This document shows positions 2,629 to 63,238 of a DNA stretch of 64,000 nucleotides, piece by piece; position 1 is the first letter of the stretch; each line of letters starts with the position of its first letter. The notes beneath the pieces were generated by a model, which saw only the letters and a list, made by a program, of their open reading frames with translations, ran no database searches and was not told the DNA's origin. The position numbers and the translations under genes were made by a program. Source of the DNA: Elusimicrobiota bacterium. Its GTDB lineage: Bacteria; Elusimicrobiota; Elusimicrobia; UBA1565; UBA9628. The DNA lies in contig CP096137.1 of NCBI GenBank assembly GCA_023213235.1, positions 71,587 through 135,586 on the forward strand. Reading direction: 5' to 3'.

Positions 2629-2708
2629 AGGGTGTCAGGCCTAACAATTAACGATTCCAATGGATGCGCGCATTCCGGGGAATCGTTAATTGTTAGGCCT
2701 GACACCCT
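2629..2708. repeat. Hairpin element E1 of the GGTGTCAGGCCT family: 30-bp perfect stem with a 20-nt loop.
   Basis: Left arm is AGGGTGTCAGGCCTAACAATTAACGATTCC (2629-2658). The right arm is its exact reverse complement (2679-2708). The loop AATGGATGCGCGCATTCCGG contains the palindrome ATGCGCGCAT. I checked the pairing base by base. Confidence 0.9.
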
Positions 2709-15399: not shown

Positions 15400-18300
15400 A
15401 TCGTCTGGTACCCCTCGCTCTCGCCGTCCTGCTCGCCGTCCCGGCGGGAGCCTACGACACGATCCGCTTTCTCGAGCCCATCAAAGGCGACGAGATGGCC
15501 AAGCCCGTCGCCGCGGCCGCGGCCTCGGACCGGCTCTACGTCGTCGACGAAAAGAAGAACATGCTCTTCCTGTACGACATGGGCGGCAAGCTCATCAAGT
15601 CGACGGGACGCTCCGGCGCCCAGACGGGGGCCTTCAACTCGCCGCGCGGCGTCGCGGTCGGGCCGAAGGGCAACGTGTACGTCGCCGACACCGGCAACCA
15701 CCGCGTGCAGATCTTCGACCGCGACGGGAACTTCGTCTACTCCTTCGGCGAGAAGGGCTCCGAGCCCGGCAAGCTGAAGTCGCCGGAGTCCGTCTCCATC
15801 GGCGCCGACGGCCGCATCTACGTCGCCGACACCGGCAACAACCGCATCCAGGTCTTCACGAACGAGGGCATCCTGCTCTTCCTGTTCTCCCGCTACGGCA
15901 AGGAGCCGGGCCTGCTGACCAACCCGACGCGCGTCGCCGTCGATCCGTCGGACAACGTCTTCGTCCTCGACAAGGGCAACGAGCGCATCCAGAAGTTCGA
16001 CTCCTCGGCCAAGTTCGTCAAAGAGTTCGCGCTGCTCGGCAACGACTTCACCGTCGACCAGTACGGCTTCCTGTACGTCCTCGACGGCCGCAACGGCAAG
16101 GTCATCGAGCAGAGCGGCGACGGCTTCATCATGGGCCGCTTCGGCTCGCTCGGTTCCGGCGTCGGGCAGATGAAGAAGGCCGAGGGGCTCGCCGTCACTC
16201 CCGAGGGCCTGATCGTCGTCCTCGACACGGGCAACGGGCGCATCCACCGCGTCGAGCTCGCGAACAAGCTCAAGATCCGGACGCTGCCGCTGAACCTGCA
16301 GACCAAGATGTCCGTCTCCGGCCCGTCGCGCGCGTGGCCGTACTCGGCCTCCGTGCTCGCGCCGTTCGGCGACGATCTCTACGCCTACCTCCCGAAGGAG
16401 GCCCAGTTCGTCATCATCGACGACAAGGGCAAGGAGAAGTCCCGCTTCGGCGCCTCGAAGGGCAAGGGCGGCGACGTGACGCGCGGCGTCGGCGGCATGG
16501 CCGTGGCCAAGACCCCCAAGGTCGACGGCCTCTACGTCACGGACAACCCGAACCACCGCCTCCAGCAGTTCGAGACCGACGGCAAGTGGAAGTCCAACGT
16601 CGGCGAGGCGCAGGGCTTCTTCGACAGCAAGAAGCGCGAAGGCCGCATGAAGAATCCCAACGGCGTCGCCATCAACGGCGAGGGCGTCGTCTACGTCGCC
16701 GACACCGGCAACCAGCGCATCGACGCGTTCAGCCCCGAGGGCGTGTTCCTGTTCGGCTTCGGCCCGAAGGTCGGCAACTACATGCTGCTCGAGCCCGTCG
16801 CCGTCGCCTGGGACAAGGCCGGCTTCATCTACTTCGTCGACAAGGGCCTCAAGCGCGTGTTCAAGTGCGAGCCTTCCGGCGCCTACATCGCCTCGTGGGG
16901 CGAGGACGGCGACGGCCCCGGCGAGTTCAAGTCGCCCGTCTCGATCGCCTTCGACGGCCAGAACTACCTCTACACGCTCGACTCGATCCTGCGCCGCGTC
17001 AGCGTCCACACCAAGGACGGCAAGTGGCTCGCGGACTTCTTCGCGGGCGGCAAGCAGGAGCGAGAGCTCCTGGATCCCGTCGCCGTCTCCGTCCAGGGCG
17101 ACAAGCTCGTCATCGCCGACAAGGGCAAGGCCCGCCTGGTCAGCTACGATCTCCACCCGATGCTGACGGCGCCCGCCTCCGTCTCGACGACCACCAAGGA
17201 CGGGATCGTCGCCATCTCCTGGGAGCCGGTCGCCGACCCGTGGACGGGCGGCTACGTCGTGACCCGCGCCACGAGCCCCGCCGGCCCGTGGGCGACCGCC
17301 GGCGAGACCAAGACCGAGACGTTCCAGGACTCCGAGGTCACGCCGTACGAGAAGTACTGGTACCGCGTCGCGACCAAGGCCAAGACCTCCGACGTCGGCC
17401 CCGCGGGCCGCTCGATCGACGTGTTCGTCTCGGGCTCCTTCAACCGGTCGCCCGTCGAGATCTCGACGGTCACGCTCGGCGACATCTTCGCGGCCAACTA
17501 CAAGTGGTACCTGCGCAACCCGATGGGCGTCGCGACCCTGACGAACAACGTCAACGCGCCCTTCGAGAACGTGAAGCTCACGTTCAAGCTCAAGGACTAC
17601 ATGGACTTCGGCTTCGACACCGAGATCAAGAAGCTCGCGGCCAAGCAGTCCGTCGACGTGCCTCTGATCGCGACGCTCAACAACAAGGTCCTCGAGATCT
17701 CCGAGGACACGCCGATCCAGGCCGAGTTCACGATGACGTACTTCGAGAGCGGCAAGCAGCAGACGGTCTCGATCACCAAGCCCCTGCGCCTGTACTCGAA
17801 GAACGCGATCACGTGGCAGGACCCGCGCCGCATCGCGAACTTCGTGACGCGCAAGGACCCGCCGGTGCGCGACTTCGTGCGCTCCGTCTCGACGCTCGAG
17901 TTCAAGAACCGCAAGGCGAGCGCGCTGAACACGCCGGCGCTCAAGGCGATGCGCCTGTGGAACGCGCTGTCGGAGTACGGGCTGAAGTTCGTCGCCAACC
18001 CGGCCAACCCGTTCGAGGCCGCGCACGACGACCCCAACTTCCCGGTCGACTACACGCAGTTCCCGCGCGAGACGCTGCGCAGCAAGTCCGGCCAGTGCTC
18101 GGACCTGACGTCGCTGTACGCCGCGATGCTCGAGGACAGCGAGGTCCGCGTCGCGATCCTCGACTACCCGGGCCACATGACGCTCATGTTCGACACCGAG
18201 GCCGAGGACGCGGCCGAGGCCGGCATGCCCGCCGACCTGCTCGTCGAGCACGACGGCACCATGTGGGTGCCCGTCGAGGTCACCTACATCGGCAAGCCGT

Positions 18301-18899
18301 TCATCGACGCGGTGTCGAAGGCGGCCTACGCCTACAAGGCCGAGGCCGACAAGGGCCGCGTGAAGTCCTACAGCCTGCACAAGGCCTGGGGCACCTACGA
18401 GCCCGTCACGATGCCGCCGACCGACTTCTCGCCGAAGTTCCCGGAGACGACGGGCCTCGAGCGCCGCTACGACGACCAGGTCAACGTGCTCGCCAAGGAC
18501 CGCTACAACTTCCTCAAGAAGCAGTATGAGTCCGACATCCGCCGCAACGGCAAGGATATCGAGGCTCAGCTGCAGCTCGGCATCATCGAGTACCAGTTCG
18601 GCAACCGCGAGGCGGCCGTCACCGAGTTCAACAAGGTGCTGTCCCTCGACCCGTCGAACTCGTCGGCGCTCAACAACCTCGGCTCGGTCGCCTTCCTCGA
18701 GGGCGACAACGTCGAGGCCGAGAAGCGCTTCACGCAGGCCTCCGAGGCCGAGCCCGAGGACCCGATGATCTGGCTGAACCTCGTGAAGACGTCGCTGCGC
18801 CTCAAGAAGGCCGACAAGGCGAAGGCGATGGGCGAGAAGGCCGTCGCGCTCGCCCCGTCGTTCAAGCCGGCCGTCGACAGCCTGATCAAGGGAAGCTGA
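15396..18899 (+). CDS. Large exported multidomain protein: about 12 NHL repeats, an FN3-like module, a transglutaminase-like Cys-His core, and C-terminal TPR repeats.
   Basis: ORF 15396..18899 (1167 aa) is intact. Signal peptide is [19 protein letters not shown]. The NHL signature recurs (P.GVAV...G.IYVADTGN.RIQ.F). The transglutaminase-like segment is SGQCSDLTSLYAAMLED..YPGHMTLMFD..WVPVEVT. The TPR tail is ..QLGIIEYQFGNREAAVTEFNKVLSLDPSNS... Confidence 0.8.
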   Translation: MNRLVPLALAVLLAVPAGAYDTIRFLEPIKGDEMAKPVAAAAASDRLYVVDEKKNMLFLYDMGGKLIKSTGRSGAQTGAFNSPRGVAVGPKGNVYVADTGNHRVQIFDRDGNFVYSFGEKGSEPGKLKSPESVSIGADGRIYVADTGNNRIQVFTNEGILLFLFSRYGKEPGLLTNPTRVAVDPSDNVFVLDKGNERIQKFDSSAKFVKEFALLGNDFTVDQYGFLYVLDGRNGKVIEQSGDGFIMGRFGSLGSGVGQMKKAEGLAVTPEGLIVVLDTGNGRIHRVELANKLKIRTLPLNLQTKMSVSGPSRAWPYSASVLAPFGDDLYAYLPKEAQFVIIDDKGKEKSRFGASKGKGGDVTRGVGGMAVAKTPKVDGLYVTDNPNHRLQQFETDGKWKSNVGEAQGFFDSKKREGRMKNPNGVAINGEGVVYVADTGNQRIDAFSPEGVFLFGFGPKVGNYMLLEPVAVAWDKAGFIYFVDKGLKRVFKCEPSGAYIASWGEDGDGPGEFKSPVSIAFDGQNYLYTLDSILRRVSVHTKDGKWLADFFAGGKQERELLDPVAVSVQGDKLVIADKGKARLVSYDLHPMLTAPASVSTTTKDGIVAISWEPVADPWTGGYVVTRATSPAGPWATAGETKTETFQDSEVTPYEKYWYRVATKAKTSDVGPAGRSIDVFVSGSFNRSPVEISTVTLGDIFAANYKWYLRNPMGVATLTNNVNAPFENVKLTFKLKDYMDFGFDTEIKKLAAKQSVDVPLIATLNNKVLEISEDTPIQAEFTMTYFESGKQQTVSITKPLRLYSKNAITWQDPRRIANFVTRKDPPVRDFVRSVSTLEFKNRKASALNTPALKAMRLWNALSEYGLKFVANPANPFEAAHDDPNFPVDYTQFPRETLRSKSGQCSDLTSLYAAMLEDSEVRVAILDYPGHMTLMFDTEAEDAAEAGMPADLLVEHDGTMWVPVEVTYIGKPFIDAVSKAAYAYKAEADKGRVKSYSLHKAWGTYEPVTMPPTDFSPKFPETTGLERRYDDQVNVLAKDRYNFLKKQYESDIRRNGKDIEAQLQLGIIEYQFGNREAAVTEFNKVLSLDPSNSSALNNLGSVAFLEGDNVEAEKRFTQASEAEPEDPMIWLNLVKTSLRLKKADKAKAMGEKAVALAPSFKPAVDSLIKGS

Positions 18900-18921
18900 T
18901 TTCCGTCGGAGGAGAAACATC

Positions 18922-19383
18922 ATGAAAACGCTGATCATCGCCGTGATCCTCGCCGCCTTGGCCGTGACGTCGCACGCCCAGGCGCAGGAGGCCAAGAAGA
19001 CCGGCTGGGGCGACTTCTTCAAGAATCTGAAGAACTCGCTGTCGCAGTCCGCCGTCAGCAGCGAGCGCAAGCGCGGCCGCAACGCGCAGGGCGTGGCCGC
19101 CGTCCGCGGCGACGACCAGTCCAAGAAGAACTTCGCCGATCCCAACGAGCCCGGGCTCAAGGGCGACGCCAAGAGCGCGAAGGTCCGCCGCGAGATGGCC
19201 TACGACCAGGAGCTCGAGGCCGCCATCGACCTCGTGAACAAGGGCAAGCTCGACGAGAGCCTCAAGGCGCTCGAGAACTTCAAGACGGCCCACCCGAAGC
19301 ACAAGACCGCCGACGTCGACAAGGCGATCGAGGGCGTCAAGGCGATGCAGGCCGAGAAGGCCGCCGCGCCCGCCGCTCAGTAA
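18922..19383 (+). CDS. Small secreted hypothetical protein (153 aa).
   Basis: ORF 18922..19383. A GGAGGAG Shine-Dalgarno lies 8 nt upstream. Signal peptide is MKTLIIAVILAALAVTSHAQA. No family recognised. Confidence 0.55.
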   Translation: MKTLIIAVILAALAVTSHAQAQEAKKTGWGDFFKNLKNSLSQSAVSSERKRGRNAQGVAAVRGDDQSKKNFADPNEPGLKGDAKSAKVRREMAYDQELEAAIDLVNKGKLDESLKALENFKTAHPKHKTADVDKAIEGVKAMQAEKAAAPAAQ

Positions 19384-19403
19384 GCCGCCGCTCCGCCGGA
19401 CAA

Positions 19404-19438
19404 CGGGCCCCCGCCGCGAGGCGGGGCCCGCTATTTTC
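19404..19438 (+). terminator. Rho-independent terminator.
   Basis: CGGGCCCCCGCC-GCGA-GGCGGGGCCCG gives 11 bp with one bulged C and a GNRA loop, followed by CTATTTTC. It lies 21 nt after the stop at 19383. Confidence 0.65.
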
Positions 19439-19481
19439 GCCGTATCCGGCGAGCGGCTCGACTTAAACACAGGCGCTCCGC

Positions 19482-19509
19482 TCTCAACTGTTGTCGACAA
19501 CAGTTGAGA
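19482..19509. repeat. 28-bp perfect palindrome with no loop.
   Basis: TCTCAACTGTTGTCGACAACAGTTGAGA. It is made of two sub-palindromes, CAACTGTTG and CAACAGTTG, around a central TCGA. Confidence 0.9.
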
Positions 19510-19543
19510 AGGACTTCCCGGTGAATAACACGGAGGCGTGGGG

Positions 19544-19572
19544 TTGACCTCGCTTCAGTTCGAGGCTACACT
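19544..19572 (+). promoter_or_regulatory. Sigma-70-type promoter of the islet operon, with leaderless geometry.
   Basis: TTGACC (19544-19549), 17-nt spacer, TACACT (19567-19572), 6 nt, ATG at 19579. Confidence 0.55.
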
Positions 19573-19578
19573 GTCGAA

Positions 19579-20163
19579 ATGCGACCATCAGTCGTATTGA
19601 CCCTGTTATTCGTCACTTCAGCTTCGGCTGCCGACGTAAAGCCGAACCTTTTGCGCGTCGGGTCGGACGTATATACTCTGAGTAGCGCGAGCAAAGGCCA
19701 GGGTCCCGTGACCGTGTCGAAGCAAGACGCCAGGGATAAGGCGCGCGTCTTCAAGAATTATCGCCTCGGCGTCGCCGCCGACGGGACGATCTCGGAGCTC
19801 GCGAATTGCGCGGAAACGGCGCTCGGTCCGAACTGCGTGGAGATCGAGACAGGCGGCGGCAAGTACATGCTTCCTTCCCTTGAATCCCTCTTCATCGGGG
19901 ATGAAAAGCCCTGGATCGCCGTCATGATCAGAGGCAAGCGCACGAAGATTCCGCTTCCGATGGACGCCGGAAGAATCCGATCCGTTGCGGCGACCTCGGG
20001 CGGAATACGCCTCGTCGTTTTTGCGCAGAAATCGCTCGGCCGCCGCAGCGAGGGCGGACGTGAGATGTTCGGGGTGGCGCACGGCGGCGTCTATAAGATC
20101 GTTGAAATAGCTGCCGACGCGGTCAAATCGGAATCGATCGCCAAGACGGAGCCGCGGCCATGA
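19579..20163 (+). CDS. Secreted hypothetical protein (194 aa).
   Basis: ORF 19579..20163. Signal peptide is MRPSVVLTLLFVTSASAAD. No recognisable family. It lies in the lower-GC islet. Confidence 0.55.
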   Translation: MRPSVVLTLLFVTSASAADVKPNLLRVGSDVYTLSSASKGQGPVTVSKQDARDKARVFKNYRLGVAADGTISELANCAETALGPNCVEIETGGGKYMLPSLESLFIGDEKPWIAVMIRGKRTKIPLPMDAGRIRSVAATSGGIRLVVFAQKSLGRRSEGGREMFGVAHGGVYKIVEIAADAVKSESIAKTEPRP

Positions 20164-20366
20164 AGCCGCACGGAAGAATTCTCATCCTAACCGCCCTGAC
20201 GGCGGCGACGATCTCAGCACTCAGTGTTAAGGCCGGCGAAACGAAAGAGGACTGCGCGAATTGCCAATACCGGCCGGGCGATCCTCCCTGCGCGTGTCTC
20301 GGCAGGATAGATCCAAACGGCTGTTGGTATTATCGCTGCGACTGCTGCATCGCGCGGAAGCCTTAG
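20160..20366 (+). CDS. Secreted cysteine-rich micro-protein (68 aa, with 8 Cys in a mature part of about 43 aa).
   Basis: ORF 20160..20366. ATGA overlap with the upstream ORF. MKPHGRILILTALTAATISALSVKA | GETKEDCANCQYRPGDPPCACLGRIDPNGCWYYRCDCCIARKP. Confidence 0.5.
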   Translation: MKPHGRILILTALTAATISALSVKAGETKEDCANCQYRPGDPPCACLGRIDPNGCWYYRCDCCIARKP

Positions 20367-20367
20367 G

Positions 20368-20841
20368 CTAGCGCTTGCCCTGTAGACGCTTGATCAGGCC
20401 CGTCGTCGAGTAGCCCTGCTTCAGCGAGACGATCACGACCTTGCCCGCGTATTTCGCTTCGGGAAGGTCTTTGGGCTTGTAGTCGCCGCCCTTCACCTGG
20501 ACGTCGGGACGCAGGCGCGACATGAGCTTCTCGGGCGTCTGCTCGCCGAAGGCGACGACGGCGTCGACGCAGGAGAGCGCGGCCAGGACCTCGGCGCGGT
20601 CGCGCCACTTGTTGATGGGCCGGCCCGGCGCCTTCTCCAATAAACGGACCGAAGAGTCGGTGTTGACGCCCACGACGAGCAGGTCGCCCTGGGCTCGCGC
20701 CTTCTCGAGCACCTTCACGTGCCCGGCGTGCAGGATGTCGAAGACGCCGTTGGTGAACACGACCGCGCGGCCCTCGAAGCGCCACAGCTCCCGCAGCGTC
20801 AAGAGCTTCTTGAGCGGGACGATCTTCGAGGAGGAGTTCAT
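20368..20841 (-). CDS. hldC: D-glycero-beta-D-manno-heptose-1-phosphate adenylyltransferase (RfaE domain II type).
   Basis: ATG at 20841 within ORF 20368..20973. MNSSSKIVPL..VVFTNGVFDILHAGHVKVLEKAR..VGVNTDSSV..VKGGDYKPKDLPE..STTGLIKRL. Confidence 0.85.
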   Translation of the reverse strand: MNSSSKIVPLKKLLTLRELWRFEGRAVVFTNGVFDILHAGHVKVLEKARAQGDLLVVGVNTDSSVRLLEKAPGRPINKWRDRAEVLAALSCVDAVVAFGEQTPEKLMSRLRPDVQVKGGDYKPKDLPEAKYAGKVVIVSLKQGYSTTGLIKRLQGKR

Positions 20842-21439
20842 CAGCCGTGGGCGAGCGGCGCGTTCGGGAACAGAGCGTCCTCGAGGATGCCGCACCAGAT
20901 CTGGATCACCGTGATGTGGGCCTCCTGGATGCGGGCGGTGGAATCGGAGGGAATGCAGACGCAGTGGTCGCACAGCGCCTTGAGCTTGCCGCCGGAGCGG
21001 CCCGTCAGGCCGATGACGGTCATGCCGAGCTCGCGCGCGGCCATGGCGGCGTTGAGCACGTTCTTCGAGTTCCCGGAGGTCGAAATCGCGACTGCCACGT
21101 CGCCGGCGCGGCCGAGCGCGCGCAGCGGGCGCTCGAAAACGAACTCGAAGCCGAAGTCGTTGGCGATCGAGGTCAGGTCGCCCTGGTTGGCCGCGAGCGA
21201 GATCGCCGGCAGGCCCGGGCGGTTGCGCCGGTAGCGGCCGGTGAGCTCGTCGGCGAAGTTCGAGGCGTCGCAGGAGGAGCCGCCGTTGCCGAAGGAGAGC
21301 AGCTTGCCGCCGTTGCGGTAGGAGCGCAGGAGGTCGGCCGCCGCCGCGTCGATGACGGGGAGAGCTTGGCCGTCGCGTTGAGGACCTTCGCCGATTCCCT
21401 CAGCTGATCTTGGATCGTCTTCTTGAAGTTGTCAGGCAT
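20841..21439 (-). CDS. gmhA: Phosphoheptose isomerase (SIS domain), with a frame break at the run 21357-21360.
   Basis: ORF 21173..21439 ([20 protein letters not shown]..) joins ORF 20841..21098 (..VAISTSGNSKNVLNAAMAARELGMTVIGLTG..). Adding one base restores ..SPVIDAAAADLLRSYRNGGKLLSFGNGGSSCDASNFADEL... Confidence 0.85.
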
Positions 21440-22792
21440 GAGCGGGCTTTTTCTCCACGAGGATGTTGTTCTTCTCGATGAAATGCGTGTCGAAGTCCCC
21501 GCCGATGAAGACGGGGTGCGCGACGACCCGGGCGTGCAGGCCGGCGGTGGTCTTGAGTCCGCCGACCTTGAGCTCCGACAGCGCGCGCAGCGAGCGGCGC
21601 AGGGCGGAGGGGCGGTCTCCGGCGGAGATGATGAGCTTGGCGATCATCGAGTCGTAGTAGCTGGGGATCGTGTAGCCGGCGTAGACGTGGGTGTCGACGC
21701 GCACGCCGGCGCCGCCGGGCAGTTCGAGCGACTCGATGCGGCCGGGGCAGGGCATGAACCCGTTGTCGGGGTCTTCCGCGTTGATGCGATGTTCGATCGC
21801 GTGGCAGCGGATCTCGCTGGCGCGCGTCTGATCGAACGGAAGCTTCTCGCCCGCGGCGACCTTGATCATCAGCTCCATCAAGTCGACGCCCGCGACCAGT
21901 TCGGTGACGGGGTGCTCGACCTGCAGGCGCGCGTTGACCTCGATGAAGTAGAACTTGCCGTCCTGGAAGAGGAACTCGACGGTGCCGACGTTGGAGTAGT
22001 TCGCGGCCTTGGCGAGGCGGATGGCGGCGGCCTGCATCTCCTTGCGGATCTCGGGCGTGAGCGCGGGGGACGGGGACTCCTCGACGAGCTTCTGGTGGCG
22101 GCGTTGGACCGTGCAGTCGCGCTCGGGGAAGGCGACGACGTTGCCGTGCTTGTCGGCGATGATCTGGATCTCGACGTGGCGCGGACGCTCCAGGAGCTTT
22201 TCGATGAAGACGGAGCCGTCGCCGAAGGCGGCCTTCGCCTCGTTGGCCGCGGCCTCGAGCTGCGGCTTGAGCTCGTCGGGAGTTCGGACGATTCTCATAC
22301 CCTTGCCGCCGCCGCCGGCGGAGGCCTTGATGAGGACGGGGTAGCCGATCGCGGCGATCTCCTTGGGATCGACGGTCGAGATGTCGCCCTTCGTGCCGGG
22401 CACGCACGGGACGTTGGCGGCCGTCGCGACGGCTTTGCCCGCGCTCTTGAAGCCGAGCTTTCGGCTGGCCTCGGGGGCGGGCCGATGAAGGTGATGCCGC
22501 GCTTGGCGCACAGCTCGGAGAAATCGGCGTTCTCGGAGAGGAAGCCGTACCCGGGATGAATCGCGTCGGCGCCGGTGTTCTTGGCGGCGGAAAGGACCGC
22601 GTCCTGGTCGAGGTAGGAGAGCTTGGAGGGGCCGGGGCCTATACAGACCGCCTCGTCCGCCATGAGGACGTGGCGGGACTCGCGGTCGGCCTCGGAGTAG
22701 ACGGCGACCGTCTGGATGCCGAGCTCGCGCGCGGCGCGGATGACGCGGACGGCGATCTCGGAGCGGTTGGCGATCAGGATTTTCTTGAACAC
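21432..22792 (-). CDS. accC: Biotin carboxylase (acetyl-CoA carboxylase subunit), with a frame break at the run 22473-22477.
   Basis: ORF 22295..22792 ([37 protein letters not shown]) joins ORF 21432..22511 (..[35 protein letters not shown]..). A GAGGA Shine-Dalgarno lies 8 nt before the GTG. Confidence 0.9.
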
Positions 22793-49856: not shown

Positions 49857-49934
49857 TGGTGTCAGGCCTCCCACTTTCCCACTTTTCTAGGGGGAGTATT
49901 CTGGAAAAGTGGGAAAGTGGGAGGCCTGACACCA
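49857..49934. repeat. Hairpin element E2 of the GGTGTCAGGCCT family: 31-bp perfect stem with a 16-nt loop.
   Basis: TGGTGTCAGGCCTCCCACTTTCCCACTTTTC (49857-49887) pairs exactly with 49904-49934. The loop is TAGGGGGAGTATTCTG. I checked the pairing base by base. Confidence 0.9.
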
Positions 49935-49949: not shown

Positions 49950-49955
49950 TACCAT
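49950..49955 (+). promoter_or_regulatory. -10-like hexamer of the DoxX gene, with leaderless geometry.
   Basis: TACCAT, 6 nt, ATG at 49962. CTGACA (49926-49931, inside the E2 right terminus) lies 18 nt upstream. Confidence 0.4.
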
Positions 49956-49961
49956 CCGCGA

Positions 49962-50338
49962 ATGGACACCGACGACGCGCTGGCCCTCGTGGGACGCCTG
50001 TTCGTCGCGATCATCTTCCTGGCGTCCGCGTTCGGCAAGATCACGAACTTCGACGGGACGCTCCAGTTCATGGAGTCCCACGGGATGCCGGCGGCCAACC
50101 TGCTCTGCGTCGCGTCGATCGCGATCGAGGCCCTCGGGGCGATCTCCATCATTCTCGGCTACAAGTCGCGCTGGGGGCCGCCGCGCTGGCCGCCTTCCTG
50201 ATCGCGGCGACGTGGGTGTTCCACACCGCGCCCGACCAGCGCATCCAGCTCCTCAAGAACCTCGCGATTCTCGGCGGCCTGCTCAACCTCATCGCGCACG
50301 GCCCCGGCGACATCAGCCTCGAGGGGAGGAAGGCGTGA
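49962..50338 (+). CDS. DoxX family membrane protein, with a frame break at the G5 run 50173-50177.
   Basis: MDTDDALALVGRLFVAIIFLASAFGKI.. (tail of ORF 49632..50201) joins ..GAAALAAFLIAATWVFH..LKNLAILGGLL.. (tail of ORF 49289..50338) after one added G. Confidence 0.75.
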
Positions 50339-59796: not shown

Positions 59797-60713
59797 CTAC
59801 CAGCTCCCAGACGCCCCGCCGCCGCCGAAAGACCCGCCGCCGCCGGAGAAGCCGCCCCCGCCGCCCGACGACCAGCCGCCGCCTCCGCCTCCGCCCGAGT
59901 CGTGGGTGGAATACAGGAAGGTCTTGCCCCAGTACACCTTCTTCTTGCGGATCACGATCTTGCGCCCCCAGTCCGTGTTCGAGAGGAGGTACTTGAGCAC
60001 CGGGACGCCGAAGAGATGGAGGAGGATCGCGGGGACCGCGTGCTCGGCTCCGATGGTCATGGCGCAGACGAGCAGCCAGCCCGGGATGAGCATGAAATAC
60101 ATTCCCAGCTGGTCCGGCTCGATGATCGCGCGGACCTCCATGAAGAGGACCATCCAGATGATGAACAGCATCCCGAGCCAGGACTTCACGCCTTCCCAGG
60201 GTCCCTCGTCGAAGTGCGTGCGCCACGGGGCGCGCGGCCCGGGCACGGAGTAAGTTCCCGCCGCGGAAGCGAGGATCGCGTCGACGCCCGCGTTCACGCC
60301 GCCCGAAAAATCACCCGCGCGCAAGCGCGGGGCCATCTCGTCCGAGATGATGCGCCCGGCCAGCGCATCGGGCAGCGCGCCCTCGAGCCCGTGGCCGACC
60401 TCGATGCGGACCCGGCGGTCGTCCTTGCTGATGAGCAGGAGGACGCCGTCGTTGACGCCCTTGCGGCCGAGGCCCCACGCGCGCGCGACCTTCAGCGAGT
60501 AGGCCTCGAGGTTCTCGCCCTGAAGCGACGGGATGATGAGCACGGCGACCTGCCGGCCGGTCTTCGCCTCGTCGGCGGCGAGCTTGGCCGTGAGGTCGTC
60601 GGCCTGGGTGGCGGTGAGAAGCCCGTGGCCGTCGACGACGCGCGCGGCGGGGGGACGTCGAGCGCGGTCGCCGGGGCCGCGGCGAGGAGGACGGCCGCTA
60701 CCAGCTTCCGGAT
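59797..60713 (-). CDS. TPM-domain protein (YgcG-like) with TM segments and a Gly-rich C-terminal tail, copy B. There is a frame break at the G6 run 60649-60654, and the start is uncertain.
   Basis: C-terminal third of composite ORF 59797..62283: ..VVDGHGLLTATQADDLTAKLAADEAKTGRQVAVLIIPSL..GVLLLISKDDRRVRIEVGHGLEG..GGGGGFSGGGGSFGGGGASGSW*. The signal-peptide-like ..RKLVAAVLLAAAPATALDVPP is in another frame and lacks a clear ATG/GTG. Confidence 0.65.
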
Positions 60714-61629
60714 GAGCCGCCCCCGCCGAAGGATCCGCCGCCGCCGGAGAAGCCGCCTCCTCCTCCCGACGACCAGCCCGAGGACGAGGAGCCGCCCGAC
60801 GTCTGCGTGAACAGCAGCGAGTCGCCGTAGTAGGTCTTGTTCCCGACCGTCCGGAACTTCTTGCCGAACGCGGTGTGGGGAGAAGGCTCTTCACCATCGG
60901 GAAGCCGATCAGGTGCGTCAGCAGGCAGCCCATCCCGATCTTGGCGCCCCAGATCGCCATCGGGAAGGCGGCCCAGAACGGGATCAGGAAGAAGTAGAGG
61001 AACCAACCCATGCCCGGGGTCAGCACGCCGATGATCTCGAAGAGGCCGAGGATGCCGAAGACGAAGGCGCTGATGAGCAGGCGCTCGAGGATGCTGTCGC
61101 CGAGGCCGTTGAAATTCTCCTTGTTGCCCTCGAACGGCGAGGACGGCGCGGGAGGCGGGGTGTAGGCGCCCTCGCCGGCGGCCATGATCGCCTCGGCGCC
61201 CGCGATGACGCCGCCCTCGAAGTCGCCGGCGCGGAAGCGCGGCACGACCTCGTTCGAGATGATGCGTCCGGCGAGCGCGTCCGGGATCGAGCCCTCGAGC
61301 CCGTGGCCGACCTCGATGCGCAGCTTGCGGTCGGCCTTGCTGACGAGGAAGAGGACGCCGTCGTTGACGCCCTTGCGGCCGAGCTTCCACGTGCGGGCGA
61401 CCTCGAGCGAGAACTCCTCGAGGGACTCGCCCTCGAGCGAGGGGATCGTCAGCAGCACGACTTGATGGCCGGTCTTCGCCTCGTACTGCTTGAGCTTGGC
61501 GTCGAGGGTGTCGGCGGCCTGGGGAGACAGCAGCCCGGCCTGGTCGTTGACGCGCCCGCCGAGGTACGGGACCTCGAGGGCCGCCGCGGGCGCGCAGAGA
61601 ACGAGCGCGAGGGCGAGGGCGCGCGTCAT
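60698..61629 (-). CDS. TPM-domain protein (YgcG-like), copy A, with a frame break at the run 60877-60880.
   Basis: MTRALALALVLCAPAAALEVPYLGGRVNDQAGLLSPQAADTLDAKLKQYEAKTGHQVVLLTIPSL..GVLFLVSKADRKLRIEVGHGLEG... After one added base it reads ..MVKSLLPHTAFGKKFRTVGNKTYYGDSLLFTQTSGGSSSSGWSSGGGGGFSGGGGSFGGGGSSGSW*. Confidence 0.75.
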
Positions 61630-62264
61630 CGCCCGTGCCCCGTCAGCGGGTCGTCGCCGAGTTCGTTGGCGTCGGATGCGCCGCCGGAGAAGCCGGCGGC
61701 CTTCAGGGTCGCCGAGACGCTCGCGATCGCCGCGCACAACCCGCCCGGCACGTCGCCCTTGGCGGCGAGCGTCGTCATCGCCGCGGCCGCCTCGTCCCAC
61801 TTCGAATCGGGTATCTTGCCGCGCACGCCCTCGTCGGCGAGCACGACGACCCGCCGCTCGAGCAGGCTCGCGAAGATCAGCACGCCGCGCCGGGTCGCGG
61901 CCCGCGCGACGCCGTGGTCGAAGAAGACCTCCTTCGCCCGCCGCTCGACGGCGGCCTTCATGCGGGTCCCTCCGATCAGCCCGCGCTTGAGCGGCGCGAA
62001 CCAGCGCCCGAGGAGGGCGCCCGCCAGGCCGGCGGCCGGGACCCACAGGATCTGCCGCGCCAACGGCTGCCACGGAGGCGCGTACACGTCGGCGAGGAAC
62101 AGGACCGCGACGGCGAGGCTCATGCCCACGCCCGCGCCCGCCCAGATCGACTCCGGGTAAGGGCTGCTCTGCGCGAACACGCAGGGCACGATCTCGGCGG
62201 CCAGCCCCGCCTCCGCCTTCTTCACGGCATCCTTCACCCGCTCCCGTTCTTGATCGGTCAGCAT
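61626..62264 (-). CDS. Membrane protein with a split TPM/DUF477-like domain.
   Basis: ORF 61626..62264: MLTDQERERVKDAVKKAEAGLAAEIVPCVF.., two TM segments, then ..RRGVLIFASLLERRVVVLADEGV... Confidence 0.55.
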   Translation of the reverse strand: MLTDQERERVKDAVKKAEAGLAAEIVPCVFAQSSPYPESIWAGAGVGMSLAVAVLFLADVYAPPWQPLARQILWVPAAGLAGALLGRWFAPLKRGLIGGTRMKAAVERRAKEVFFDHGVARAATRRGVLIFASLLERRVVVLADEGVRGKIPDSKWDEAAAAMTTLAAKGDVPGGLCAAIASVSATLKAAGFSGGASDANELGDDPLTGHGR

Positions 62265-62271
62265 GTCGTGA

Positions 62272-62300
62272 AGGATGCCTCATGGCGGCGACCCCGTCAA
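62272..62300 (-). promoter_or_regulatory. Candidate promoter of the TPM operon, abutting hairpin E3.
   Basis: Minus strand: TTGACG (62300-62295), 17 nt, CATCCT (62277-62272), 7 nt, ATG at 62264. Confidence 0.35.
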
Positions 62301-62384
62301 GGTGTCAGGCCTTGCACTCTTGCAAACTTGGCCGCTCCGTTCCGCATAAGACCGGAACTTTGCAAGAGTGCAAGGCCTGACACC
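62301..62384. repeat. Hairpin element E3 of the GGTGTCAGGCCT family: 26-bp perfect stem with a 32-nt loop.
   Basis: GGTGTCAGGCCTTGCACTCTTGCAAA (62301-62326) pairs exactly with 62359-62384. The loop is CTTGGCCGCTCCGTTCCGCATAAGACCGGAAC. Confidence 0.9.
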
Positions 62385-62394
62385 GAGAGGGGAC

Positions 62395-62403
62395 TGGTAT
62401 AAT
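62395..62403 (+). promoter_or_regulatory. Extended -10 promoter element of the ABC exporter operon, with leaderless geometry.
   Basis: TGGTATAAT, 7 nt, ATG at 62411. CTGACA (62377-62382, inside the E3 right terminus) lies 15 nt upstream. Confidence 0.5.
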
Positions 62404-62410
62404 CGACCGC

Positions 62411-63238
62411 ATGGCGGTGCTCGAGGCGCGCAATCTCTTCAAGCGGTATCCGAAGGCGAAGGTCAACGCCGTCGACGGGCTGTCGCTGTCGGTGGGGGAG
62501 GGGACGTGCTTCGGGCTGCTCGGGCCCAACGGGGCGGGCAAGACGACGACCGTCGAGATGATGATGGGCATCTCGCGGCCGGACAAGGGCGAGATCCTCT
62601 ATAGAGGAAAGCCGGCCGGCGCGGAGTTTCGCGAGCGCACGGGCATCCAGTTCCAGGACACCGCCCTGCAGGATCACTTGAAGGTCGGCGAGCTGCTCGA
62701 TCTCTTCGGAGCCCTGTACCCGCGGCGCCTGCCGACGGCCGAGCTCGCCAAGCTCTGCGATCTGGGCGAGCTGCTCGACAAGGACCCGGAGAAGCTGTCC
62801 GGCGGCCAGCGCCAGCGCGCGCTGCTGGCGCTCGCCCTCGTCAACGATCCCGACGTCGTCTTCCTCGACGAGCCGACGACCGGCCTCGACCCGCAGGCGC
62901 GGCGAAACTTCTGGGGCCTGGCGCGCTCGATCAAGGCGCGCGGCAAGACGTTGATCCTCACGACGCACTACATGGAGGAGGCCTACGCGCTGTGCGACGA
63001 GGTCGCGATCGTCGACCGGGGGCGCATCATCGCGCAGGGCCGGCCCGACGCGCTGCTCAAGGAGCACTTCGACGGCGTCACCATCGAGCTCGAGGGAGAA
63101 GAGATCATGACGAGCGACGTCGAGGCGACGCTCGACGAGCTGCGCCGGAAGGGGCGCAGCCTGGCGCACCTGCGCGTGCGTCCCCGCACGCTCGAGGACC
63201 TGTTCCTGCGGCTGACCGGCCGGGAGCTGCGCGAGTGA
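62411..63238 (+). CDS. ABC transporter ATP-binding protein (ABC-2 / DrrA-like exporter type).
   Basis: ORF 62411..63238. Walker A is GPNGAGKTT, the signature is LSGGQRQR, and Walker B is VVFLDEPTTGLD. Confidence 0.9.
   Translation: MAVLEARNLFKRYPKAKVNAVDGLSLSVGEGTCFGLLGPNGAGKTTTVEMMMGISRPDKGEILYRGKPAGAEFRERTGIQFQDTALQDHLKVGELLDLFGALYPRRLPTAELAKLCDLGELLDKDPEKLSGGQRQRALLALALVNDPDVVFLDEPTTGLDPQARRNFWGLARSIKARGKTLILTTHYMEEAYALCDEVAIVDRGRIIAQGRPDALLKEHFDGVTIELEGEEIMTSDVEATLDELRRKGRSLAHLRVRPRTLEDLFLRLTGRELRE

Follow-up and report, generated by a model that had tools for sequence, protein, structure and literature searches.

RAYT-like (REP-associated tyrosine transposase-like) genes that lie between long inverted repeats, rather than between repetitive extragenic palindromes (REPs), were described by Di Nocera et al. 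(2013, BMC Genomics 14:522; PMC3733652) and named TIRtrons/TIRYTs. In that paper, the terminal inverted repeats (TIRs) carry the motif GGGGWSAS and overlap the 3' end of the gene, and some of them form moderately abundant families, often as dimers; Stenotrophomonas maltophilia K279a and Koribacter versatilis are among the examples given. Most TIRYTs have been assigned to TnpA_REP subclass 2.1, the C-termini of which are of the Bac_DnaA_C, HTH_23 or HTH_28 type, as stated by Quentin et al. (2018, BMC Genomics 19:475; PMC6006769). Within the literature searched, the term TIRYT occurs only in these two papers. Here, we analyse E3, a hairpin element located at positions 62301-62384 of a stretch of 64,000 nucleotides (hereafter, the window) from an Elusimicrobiota bacterium (assembly GCA_023213235.1, contig CP096137.1, positions 71,587 to 135,586). 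E3 most probably is a miniature, non-autonomous TIRtron derivative, that is, a head-to-head TIR dimer associated with the TIRYT/TnpA_REP subclass 2.1 transposases (probability of roughly 0.85), and it fits the TIRtron class on every feature tested except for a one-base variant of the motif. Thus, the kind of element to which E3 belongs is known but little studied, and E3 is a new member of it.

Anatomy of E3

The element consists of the following parts.

62301..62384, no strand: E3, complete non-autonomous hairpin element composed of two head-to-head terminal inverted repeats and a spacer (from the sequence, folding and 109 copies of like build)
62301..62312, plus strand: left conserved foot, GGTGTCAGGCCT, invariant in E1, E2, E3 and the copies fetched by pattern
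62311..62326, plus strand: inner arm, lineage-specific, two tandem 8-mers, CTTGCACT and CTTGCAAA, read from the sequence
62327..62358, no strand: spacer (loop) of 32 nt, variable among family members, that contains an internal 6-bp stem (62339-62344 / 62353-62358)
62359..62384, minus strand: right arm, exact reverse complement of 62301-62326, with the terminal foot AGGCCTGACACC at 62373-62384

The initial annotation described a perfect 26-bp stem with a 32-nt loop at this position, and the sequence, shuffling and folding all bear this out. The 26-nt arm, GGTGTCAGGCCTTGCACTCTTGCAAA, is perfectly complementary to its partner, from which it is separated by 32 nt, and had no matches in any of 100 shuffled versions of the window. 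When folded as single-stranded DNA (ssDNA), the region 62291-62394 reaches -42.6 kcal/mol, compared to -15.0 +/- 2.7 kcal/mol for shuffled sequences (z = -10), none of which attains the folding energy of the real one. The outer end, GGTGTCAG, matches GGGGWSAS at seven of the eight positions, the G at position 3 being replaced by T. Neither side of the element carries a GT[AG]G tag (GTAG or GTGG), the foot being GGTGTCAGGCC; the stem contains no extrahelical bases, and the ends lack a GTTRRRY/RYYYAAC core.

A family of hairpin elements in the window and in other genomes

E3 had been grouped with two other hairpins, E1 and E2, and the three indeed constitute a family: the window contains exactly six occurrences of GGTGTCAGGCC, arranged as three inverted pairs that correspond to E1, E2 and E3, and no solo arms were found in these 64 kb. 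The part common to the three elements is limited to the 12-nt ends, GGTGTCAGGCCT and AGGCCTGACACC. As originally noted, two of them, E2 and E3, are located in divergent promoter gaps, and E1 is located between convergent 3' ends.

2631..2706, no strand: E1, family member between convergent gene ends
49858..49933, no strand: E2, family member in a divergent promoter gap

The palindrome of E1 extends approximately 8 nt past the conserved foot (GTTAGAGG ... CCTATAAC; 6 of 8 positions complementary). The left flank of E1 (2619-2630; the right flank is at 2707-2714) repeats, at 2619-2627, nine nucleotides of its inner arm at 2680-2688 (GAATCGTTA), and the extra flanking palindrome may have resulted from a nested or duplicated insertion.

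A scan of the GTDB representative genomes with the pattern GGTGTCAGGCC-N40-70-GGCCTGACACC yielded at least 108 stretches; 109 copies with sufficient flanking sequence were extracted from the matches listed, and their features were counted. The matches listed come mostly from high-GC metagenome-assembled genomes (MAGs) of Elusimicrobiota, along with Omnitrophota, Acidobacteriota, Planctomycetota, Chlamydiota and other phyla, and include more than 100 occurrences of the E3-like design in genomes of Elusimicrobiota, Omnitrophota, Planctomycetota and Acidobacteriota. Across the 109 copies, arm positions 1-11 are invariant, as the search pattern demanded, positions 12-29 form Watson-Crick pairs in 73-97% of the cases, with all four pair types represented at positions 13-29, and pairing past position ~30 is at the chance level. 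Given that pairing ends near position 30, the arm is about 29 nt long and comprises the conserved foot followed by approximately 17 variable, yet compensated, positions. The TIRtron repeat, accordingly ~29 bp in length, has an outer foot, GG(G/T)GTCAG(G/A)CC(T), and an inner, lineage-specific part that usually consists of two tandem 7-9-mers. The inner arm recurs across many copies of the same MAG, whereas the spacer changes in both length and sequence from copy to copy. The excess of tandem 7-9-mers in the arms is measurable, with a mean best self-match of 0.498 versus 0.417 +/- 0.010 for shuffled arms; conserved pairing is strictly arm-to-arm, and single arms tend to carry direct repeats, not palindromes. 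For annotation purposes, the family can be captured by the pattern GGKGTCAGRCC ... GGYCTGACMCC.

The copies are dispersed singly and do not form cassette arrays. No target-site duplication was detected: among the 109 copies, flanking direct repeats are absent from 73 and limited to 1-2 nt in 34, which is the chance level. Within five bases of the element on either side, the A+T content is 67%, compared to ~35-40% in the more distant flanks of the same genomes. No Rfam family matched any part of the window at the gathering score, and the only matches around E3 at E <= 1 were to animal miRNA hairpins, at 17-30 bits against gathering scores of 81-100 bits. A literature search for the motif itself retrieved only unrelated primer sequences.

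Two pairs of hairpins from different MAGs apparently occupy the same sites (L016 1149-1216 and L040 4865-4944; L074 182-261 and L101 1495-1574). In these pairs, the flanks are near-identical, the spacers are partly or wholly different, and substitutions in one arm are compensated in the other, as in GGTACTTACAGTATT/AATACTGTAAGTACC versus GGTATTTGCGGTATT/AATACCGCAAATACC. Judging from these alignable sequences, arm complementarity appears to be kept up in place.

E3-like arms bracket Y1 transposase genes

Searches for a transposase partner with tblastn and a purpose-built hidden Markov model (HMM) recovered, in the window and the GTDB matches listed, a single gene, in locus L064; the window itself encodes none. 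Hairpins therefore far outnumber transposase genes, with a gene present in one of 108 loci among the matches listed. In L064, which belongs to the Planctomycetota, the ends GGTGTCAGGCCTTGTTTTTTGTTTT... and ...AAAACAAAAAACAAGGCCTGACACC, with the same foot as E3, enclose an open reading frame (ORF) of 336 aa that matches Y1_Tnp (E = 8.5e-11), NCBIfam REP_Tyr_transpos (75.2 bits; cutoff, 80) and, weakly, the DnaA C-terminal domain. On the same contig, 1.3 kb from this transposase element, the same arms recur in a hairpin of 82 nt. A search with the L064 protein yields more than 4,400 homologues (E <= 1e-10), which JGI names 'REP element-mobilizing transposase RayT'; Bac_DnaA_C is present in many of them.

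Through the L064 protein, we reached loci in three Planctomycete genomes and 80 metagenome loci. In ~60 of the ~70 metagenome loci that could be assessed, the gene is located between inverted GG(G/T)GTCA(G/A).. repeats, next to which tandem 7-8-mers are common. The left repeat usually precedes the ATG by ~50-70 nt, and the right repeat is at the stop codon, overlapping it or shortly downstream; in several loci, translation ends at the TGA within GGyCTGA, so that the C-terminal residues are encoded by the repeat. The foot with T at the third position, as in E3, flanks Y1 genes in L064, L140, L155, L157, L158, L173, L197 and L198, and the exact version of the published motif, GGGGTCAG, is also carried by relatives.

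The loci closest to E3 are L197 and L198, both from Elusimicrobiota, in which the Y1 gene is preceded by GGTGTCAGGCCTTGCAGATTGCAG... and has ...CTGCAATCTGCAAGGCCTGACACC at its 3' end. The first 16 nt of this arm are identical to those of E3, and the same TTGCA repeat unit is present (related arm, CTTGCAGATTGCAG). One reading frame of the E3 arm encodes SARPDT, a peptide present in the tails of the respective transposases, P0338 (L198) and P0340 (L197). More generally, dozens of C-termini of the Elusimicrobiota-type RAYTs are in-frame translations of hairpin arms (nzgw213, Co_metawrap_2019, STA_59 and other MAGs). Among the Elusimicrobiota transposases, which were gathered by a search with the L195 protein (see below), P0241, P0340 and P0345 score 83.0, 78.3 and 72.8 bits, respectively, against REP_Tyr_transpos, and Y1_Tnp is significant in all three as well as in the L064 protein. 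Bac_DnaA_C was recognized at 33.8 bits in the L140 protein; for the Elusimicrobiota transposases, only weak matches to HTH_28, HTH_23, HTH_38 and Bac_DnaA_C were obtained. No second gene was detected inside the transposase elements examined.

We considered the possibility that the repeat-encoded C-terminal tail is a co-evolving recognition peptide and set it aside: with respect to the foot, all three reading frames are represented among the tails (...EV*/EA*, ...GLTP..., ...RPDT...), and hence the tail peptide does not appear to be constrained.

Several of the transposase loci show additional features. Upstream of the Planctomycete transposase gene in L113, the left repeat (GGGTCAGGCCCGG...) is present as three partial copies in tandem (2836-2930), and IS21-like genes (IstB, rve) are found 2-4 kb downstream. 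In L140 (2940-3190), the last ~190 nt of the transposase gene together with the right repeat are duplicated in tandem, with right repeats at 2980 and 3173, each following the same C-terminal coding segment. In L197 (2958-2971) and L198 (2705-2718), the 3' end of the transposase gene overlaps a convergent gene for a 377-aa tetratricopeptide repeat (TPR) protein by 14 nt. RAYTs are reported to be vertically inherited, single-copy genes, and the identical locus in the two MAGs fits vertical inheritance of a single-copy transposase.

A resident transposase and the occupancy of the element sites in relatives

A transposase of this type resides in the genome that carries E3. The ABC ATPase encoded next to E3 in the window is 100% identical to UPT74315.1, and the same contig of 3,802,950 bp encodes UPT72973.1 (P0345), a Y1 transposase, the C-terminus of which (...KVGKWEV) is the in-frame translation of the E2 arm, AAAGTGGGAAAGTGGGAG. 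UPT72973.1 and E2 thus represent a matched enzyme/hairpin pair and a ready substrate for biochemistry.

The E3 site was found both empty and occupied in related genomes. In L194, where the ABC protein is 86% identical, only 25 nt separate the TPM and ABC genes, and the site is empty; in L196 (80% identical), the TGG-TATAAT-7 nt-ATG promoter of the ABC gene is the same, with no element next to it. In L195 (84% identical), the arms GGGGTCAGACCTCCCGTTGTTGCGTTGTTGA ... TCAAACAACGCAACACCGGGAGGTCTGACCCC enclose a Y1_Tnp gene of 250 aa, and the end of this complete TIRtron lies 11 nt upstream of the common TATAAT, compared to 13 nt for the E3 end; the inner arms of the L195 element (CCCGTTGTTGCGTTGTTGA) are unrelated to those of E3. 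The initial annotation favoured an intergenic insertion preference over a single dedicated function, and the empty (L194, L196) or differently occupied (L195) site, together with the Y1 link, supports that view.

The sites of the other two elements are shared with more distant relatives. At the E2 site, NC_groundwater_1675 (L087, ~80% nucleotide identity) carries an element with junctions that are identical to the nucleotide, and at the E1 site, STA_59 (L104, ~76% identity) has an element between the same gene ends, within 7 nt of the E1 junctions; compared to the L104 element, E1 has 7 extra nucleotides on each side that lengthen its palindrome. The two members of each pair share an identical 11-nt foot, whereas the inner arms of ~18 nt are wholly different, each matching a hairpin subfamily or a transposase repeat of its own genome. 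In particular, the interior of the STA_59 element matches the transposase tail of P0346.

This reuse of sites with swapped interiors is the most interesting point of the comparison. It could reflect either strong target specificity with repeated insertion or replacement in situ. A bolder version, which we regard as speculative and rather unlikely, is that the hairpins are fixed slots, the interiors of which are rewritten to match the resident transposase, with the Y1 enzyme exchanging the hairpins or homing at the foot. If this were the case, the process would amount to a cassette-like replacement of ssDNA in which the tandem 7-9-mers serve as a specificity code read by the C-terminal helix-turn-helix (HTH) domain, and the system would be a naturally re-targetable HUH recombination system.

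Proposed mechanism of E3 mobilization

Under the preferred interpretation of E3 as a miniature TIRtron derivative, the steps of mobilization can be proposed by analogy with IS608 TnpA and Escherichia coli TnpA-REP. The element would fold as an ssDNA hairpin, for example, on the lagging-strand template; the conserved foot would be recognized and cut by the Y1 catalytic domain; and the tandem 7-9-mers would be read by the C-terminal HTH, which would explain why hairpins match the transposase of their own genome. The hairpin might then leave its site, or be copied, and enter a new AT-rich intergenic location, frequently one that immediately precedes a -10 box, with no duplication of the target.

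Several observations weigh against this interpretation. No transposase with the exact inner arm of E3 was found, the closest ones (L197 and L198) diverging after 16 nt, and no second E3 arm was identified in the 64-kb window, the GTDB matches listed or the JGI metagenomes. The E3 foot differs from the published GGGGWSAS at one position, and the repeat of UPT72973.1, as deduced from the ...EV* tail, would have the foot ...TCAGACC instead of ...TCAGGCC. Furthermore, cleavage at the foot, an ssDNA intermediate and recognition of the tandem 7-9-mers by the HTH are all extrapolated from the analogous enzymes, and the literature search did not recover a biochemical study of any TIRYT. Given that no second E3 arm was found, E3-type arms may be single-copy or orphan. 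Accordingly, E3 may be served by a second enzyme, may be cross-mobilized by UPT72973.1 or may be an orphan.

Flanking genes and promoter sequences of E3

E3 is flanked by genes for a TPM-domain protein (ATG at 62264, minus strand) and the ABC ATPase (ATG at 62411, plus strand), in line with the divergent gap and the gene starts given in the initial annotation; the promoter-like hexamers it quoted on both sides are also present.

62395..62413, plus strand: putative host promoter of the ABC ATPase gene, outside E3, with TGG and TATAAT (62398-62403), 7 nt and ATG (62411)
62262..62300, minus strand: putative host promoter and start of the TPM gene, with TTGACG (62300-62295), CATCCT (62277-62272) and ATG (62264)

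On the TPM side, TTGACG and CATCCT are separated by a 17-nt spacer. On the ABC side, CTGACA, at 62377-62382 within the end of E3, precedes TATAAT by 15 nt. The region of the ABC gene from ggTATAATcgcc to the ATG is also present in the relatives L195 and L196, and comparison of these sequences suggests that TGG-TATAAT is an ancestral host promoter that exists in relatives without E3. A consensus scan of 62150-62550 that required a spacer of 16-18 nt detected neither a sigma-70 promoter nor an intrinsic terminator.

Several -10-like hexamers near the elements lie about 7 nt before an ATG (TATAAT-7-ATG, CATCCT-7-ATG and TACCAT-6/7-ATG). Such short-leader promoter sites are found in the window at 62398-62413, 62262-62277 and 49951-49965, as well as in L195 (2991-3004) and L196 (2990-3004), which suggests that this Elusimicrobiota lineage has leaderless or near-leaderless transcripts from extended -10 (TGn) promoters. 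An ORF of 828 aa (59797-62283, minus strand) overlaps the 212-aa TPM gene (61626-62264, minus strand) in a different frame. The strong TPM-domain matches of the longer ORF start only at residue 245, and it is probably a spurious 5' extension of a second TPM gene, with the operon starting at 62264. Elsewhere in the window, the cumulative GC skew has a minimum (-0.30) near 20 kb, within ~18000-22000, and the AT skew is about +0.1 to +0.2 at 8-20 kb and negative at 20-32 kb; this switch could mark a change in gene orientation or a replication landmark.

Alternative explanations

The proximity of the elements to promoters raises the possibility that E3 is a host regulatory module, the ends of which supply -35-like boxes such as CTGACA, or an insulator or protein-binding site. 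The hexamers on both sides of E3, with TTGACG-17-CATCCT directly abutting the left end, and the presence of elements between the same genes of diverged genomes at the E1 and E2 sites are compatible with this explanation, as is the enrichment of TANNNT-N5-9-ATG within 45 nt of the element end (12.7% of the flanks versus 1.1% of random windows), with extended -10 boxes clustering at offsets of 13-18 nt. However, the random windows include coding DNA, so that part of the enrichment reflects intergenic location only, and the ABC promoter exists in relatives that lack any element; consequently, a role as a -35 donor is no more than a possibility. Extended -10 promoters work without a -35 box, and, because the distance between the element end and the -10 box varies across the family (13-18 nt), the element is not needed as a -35 donor. 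Moreover, the consensus scan did not find a promoter at E3, and E1 sits between convergent 3' ends. Overall, we consider a dedicated host function improbable. Slightly less probable still is the scenario in which E3 is a relic formed in situ, that is, a full TIRtron upstream of the ABC gene that lost its transposase gene by internal deletion, so that E3 never moved as a miniature. A complete TIRtron does occupy the same promoter-proximal place in L195, and in L064, the inner ends of the neighbouring TIRtron can be recognized as the source of the short-hairpin spacer. Nevertheless, the L195 element with its unrelated inner arms is not the ancestor of E3, alignment revealed no convincing similarity between the E3 spacer and the inner ends of the closest TIRtrons, and the numerical excess of hairpins over transposase genes also argues against this origin.

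The two remaining explanations concern the hairpin itself. A guide-like or structured small RNA, in which the inner stem or the loop would pair with foreign or genomic targets, corresponds to the guide-like role raised in the initial annotation and would be in keeping with a stable hairpin with a variable interior, but no positive evidence for it emerged. The 26-nt arm has no further match in the window and none in the JGI metagenomes, the region 62295-62390 has none in GenBank phages or PLSDB plasmids (blastn, E <= 1), and the family pattern has none in the viral contigs of IMG/VR. Together with the lack of an Rfam family, interiors that match transposase-gene repeats instead of targets, and loops that are unconstrained in length and sequence, these searches render the guide role very unlikely. 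An integron attC-type or another site-specific recombination hairpin shares with E3 the conserved ends, the variable centre and single-strand folding. This proposal, the least plausible of all, is already contradicted by the sequence, given the perfect stem and the ends described above; furthermore, the associated gene encodes a Y1 HUH transposase rather than an integrase, and the copies are single and dispersed, not organized in cassette arrays. By contrast, interpretation as TIRtron derivatives accounts for all three hairpins of the window and takes them off the list of candidate regulatory or guide RNAs.

Comparison with known systems

E3 differs clearly from several better-studied classes of elements. 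Like IS200/IS605 transposons (IS608, ISDra2), the family is associated with a Y1 HUH enzyme, lacks target-site duplications and presumably depends on recognition of the end hairpins. However, the ends of IS200/IS605 elements are dissimilar subterminal hairpins, often accompanied by tnpB, whereas the ends of the elements described here are mutual, terminal inverted repeats, with no second gene in those examined; the 'peel and paste' ssDNA mechanism would extend to TIRYTs by analogy only. The Correia/NEMIS elements of Neisseria similarly are short inverted-repeat elements found beside promoters, with ends that may resemble promoter hexamers, but have DDE-type partners and target duplications, in contrast to the Y1 partner and lack of duplication in the E3 family. 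The absence of target-site duplications separates E3 from the miniature inverted-repeat elements of DDE transposases in general, and none of the attC hallmarks (R''/L''-L'/R' boxes, extrahelical bases and arrays next to intI) was observed.

The resemblance to REPIN-RAYT systems, reportedly described by Bertels and Rainey in 2011 and by Nunvar and colleagues in 2010, is closer. In both cases, non-autonomous hairpin doublets are extragenic, retain complementary arms by way of paired changes and have a RAYT-type partner, usually single-copy. Nevertheless, a classical REP begins with a 5' GT[AG]G and is itself an imperfect palindrome, and neither property is found in E3; here, an arm tends to contain direct repeats in tandem, and it takes both arms to make the hairpin.

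The closest match is to the TIRtrons/TIRYTs. As in the systems outlined in the two papers devoted to them, a Y1 gene lies between long inverted repeats that overlap its 3' end, the encoded protein has a C-terminal HTH, and dimers of the repeats are dispersed in the genome; E3 has the motif end (seven of eight positions), and both its foot and an E3-like arm bracket Y1 genes. The differences from these published descriptions include the T at the third position of the foot, GGTGTCAGGCC, compared to GGGGWSAS, and the hosts, here Elusimicrobiota, Omnitrophota and others, which are outside the published coverage. Our own counts are the source for the two-part arm, the hypervariable spacer and the shared use of sites by diverged genomes, none of which was found in the parts of the two papers that were read. 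Thus, this little-studied TIRYT branch has large hairpin families in uncultured phyla, namely, Elusimicrobiota, Omnitrophota, Planctomycetota and Acidobacteriota, and the clean anatomy of its members, in which an invariant foot is followed by 7-9-mers in pairs and the spacer is unconstrained, is well suited for experiments.

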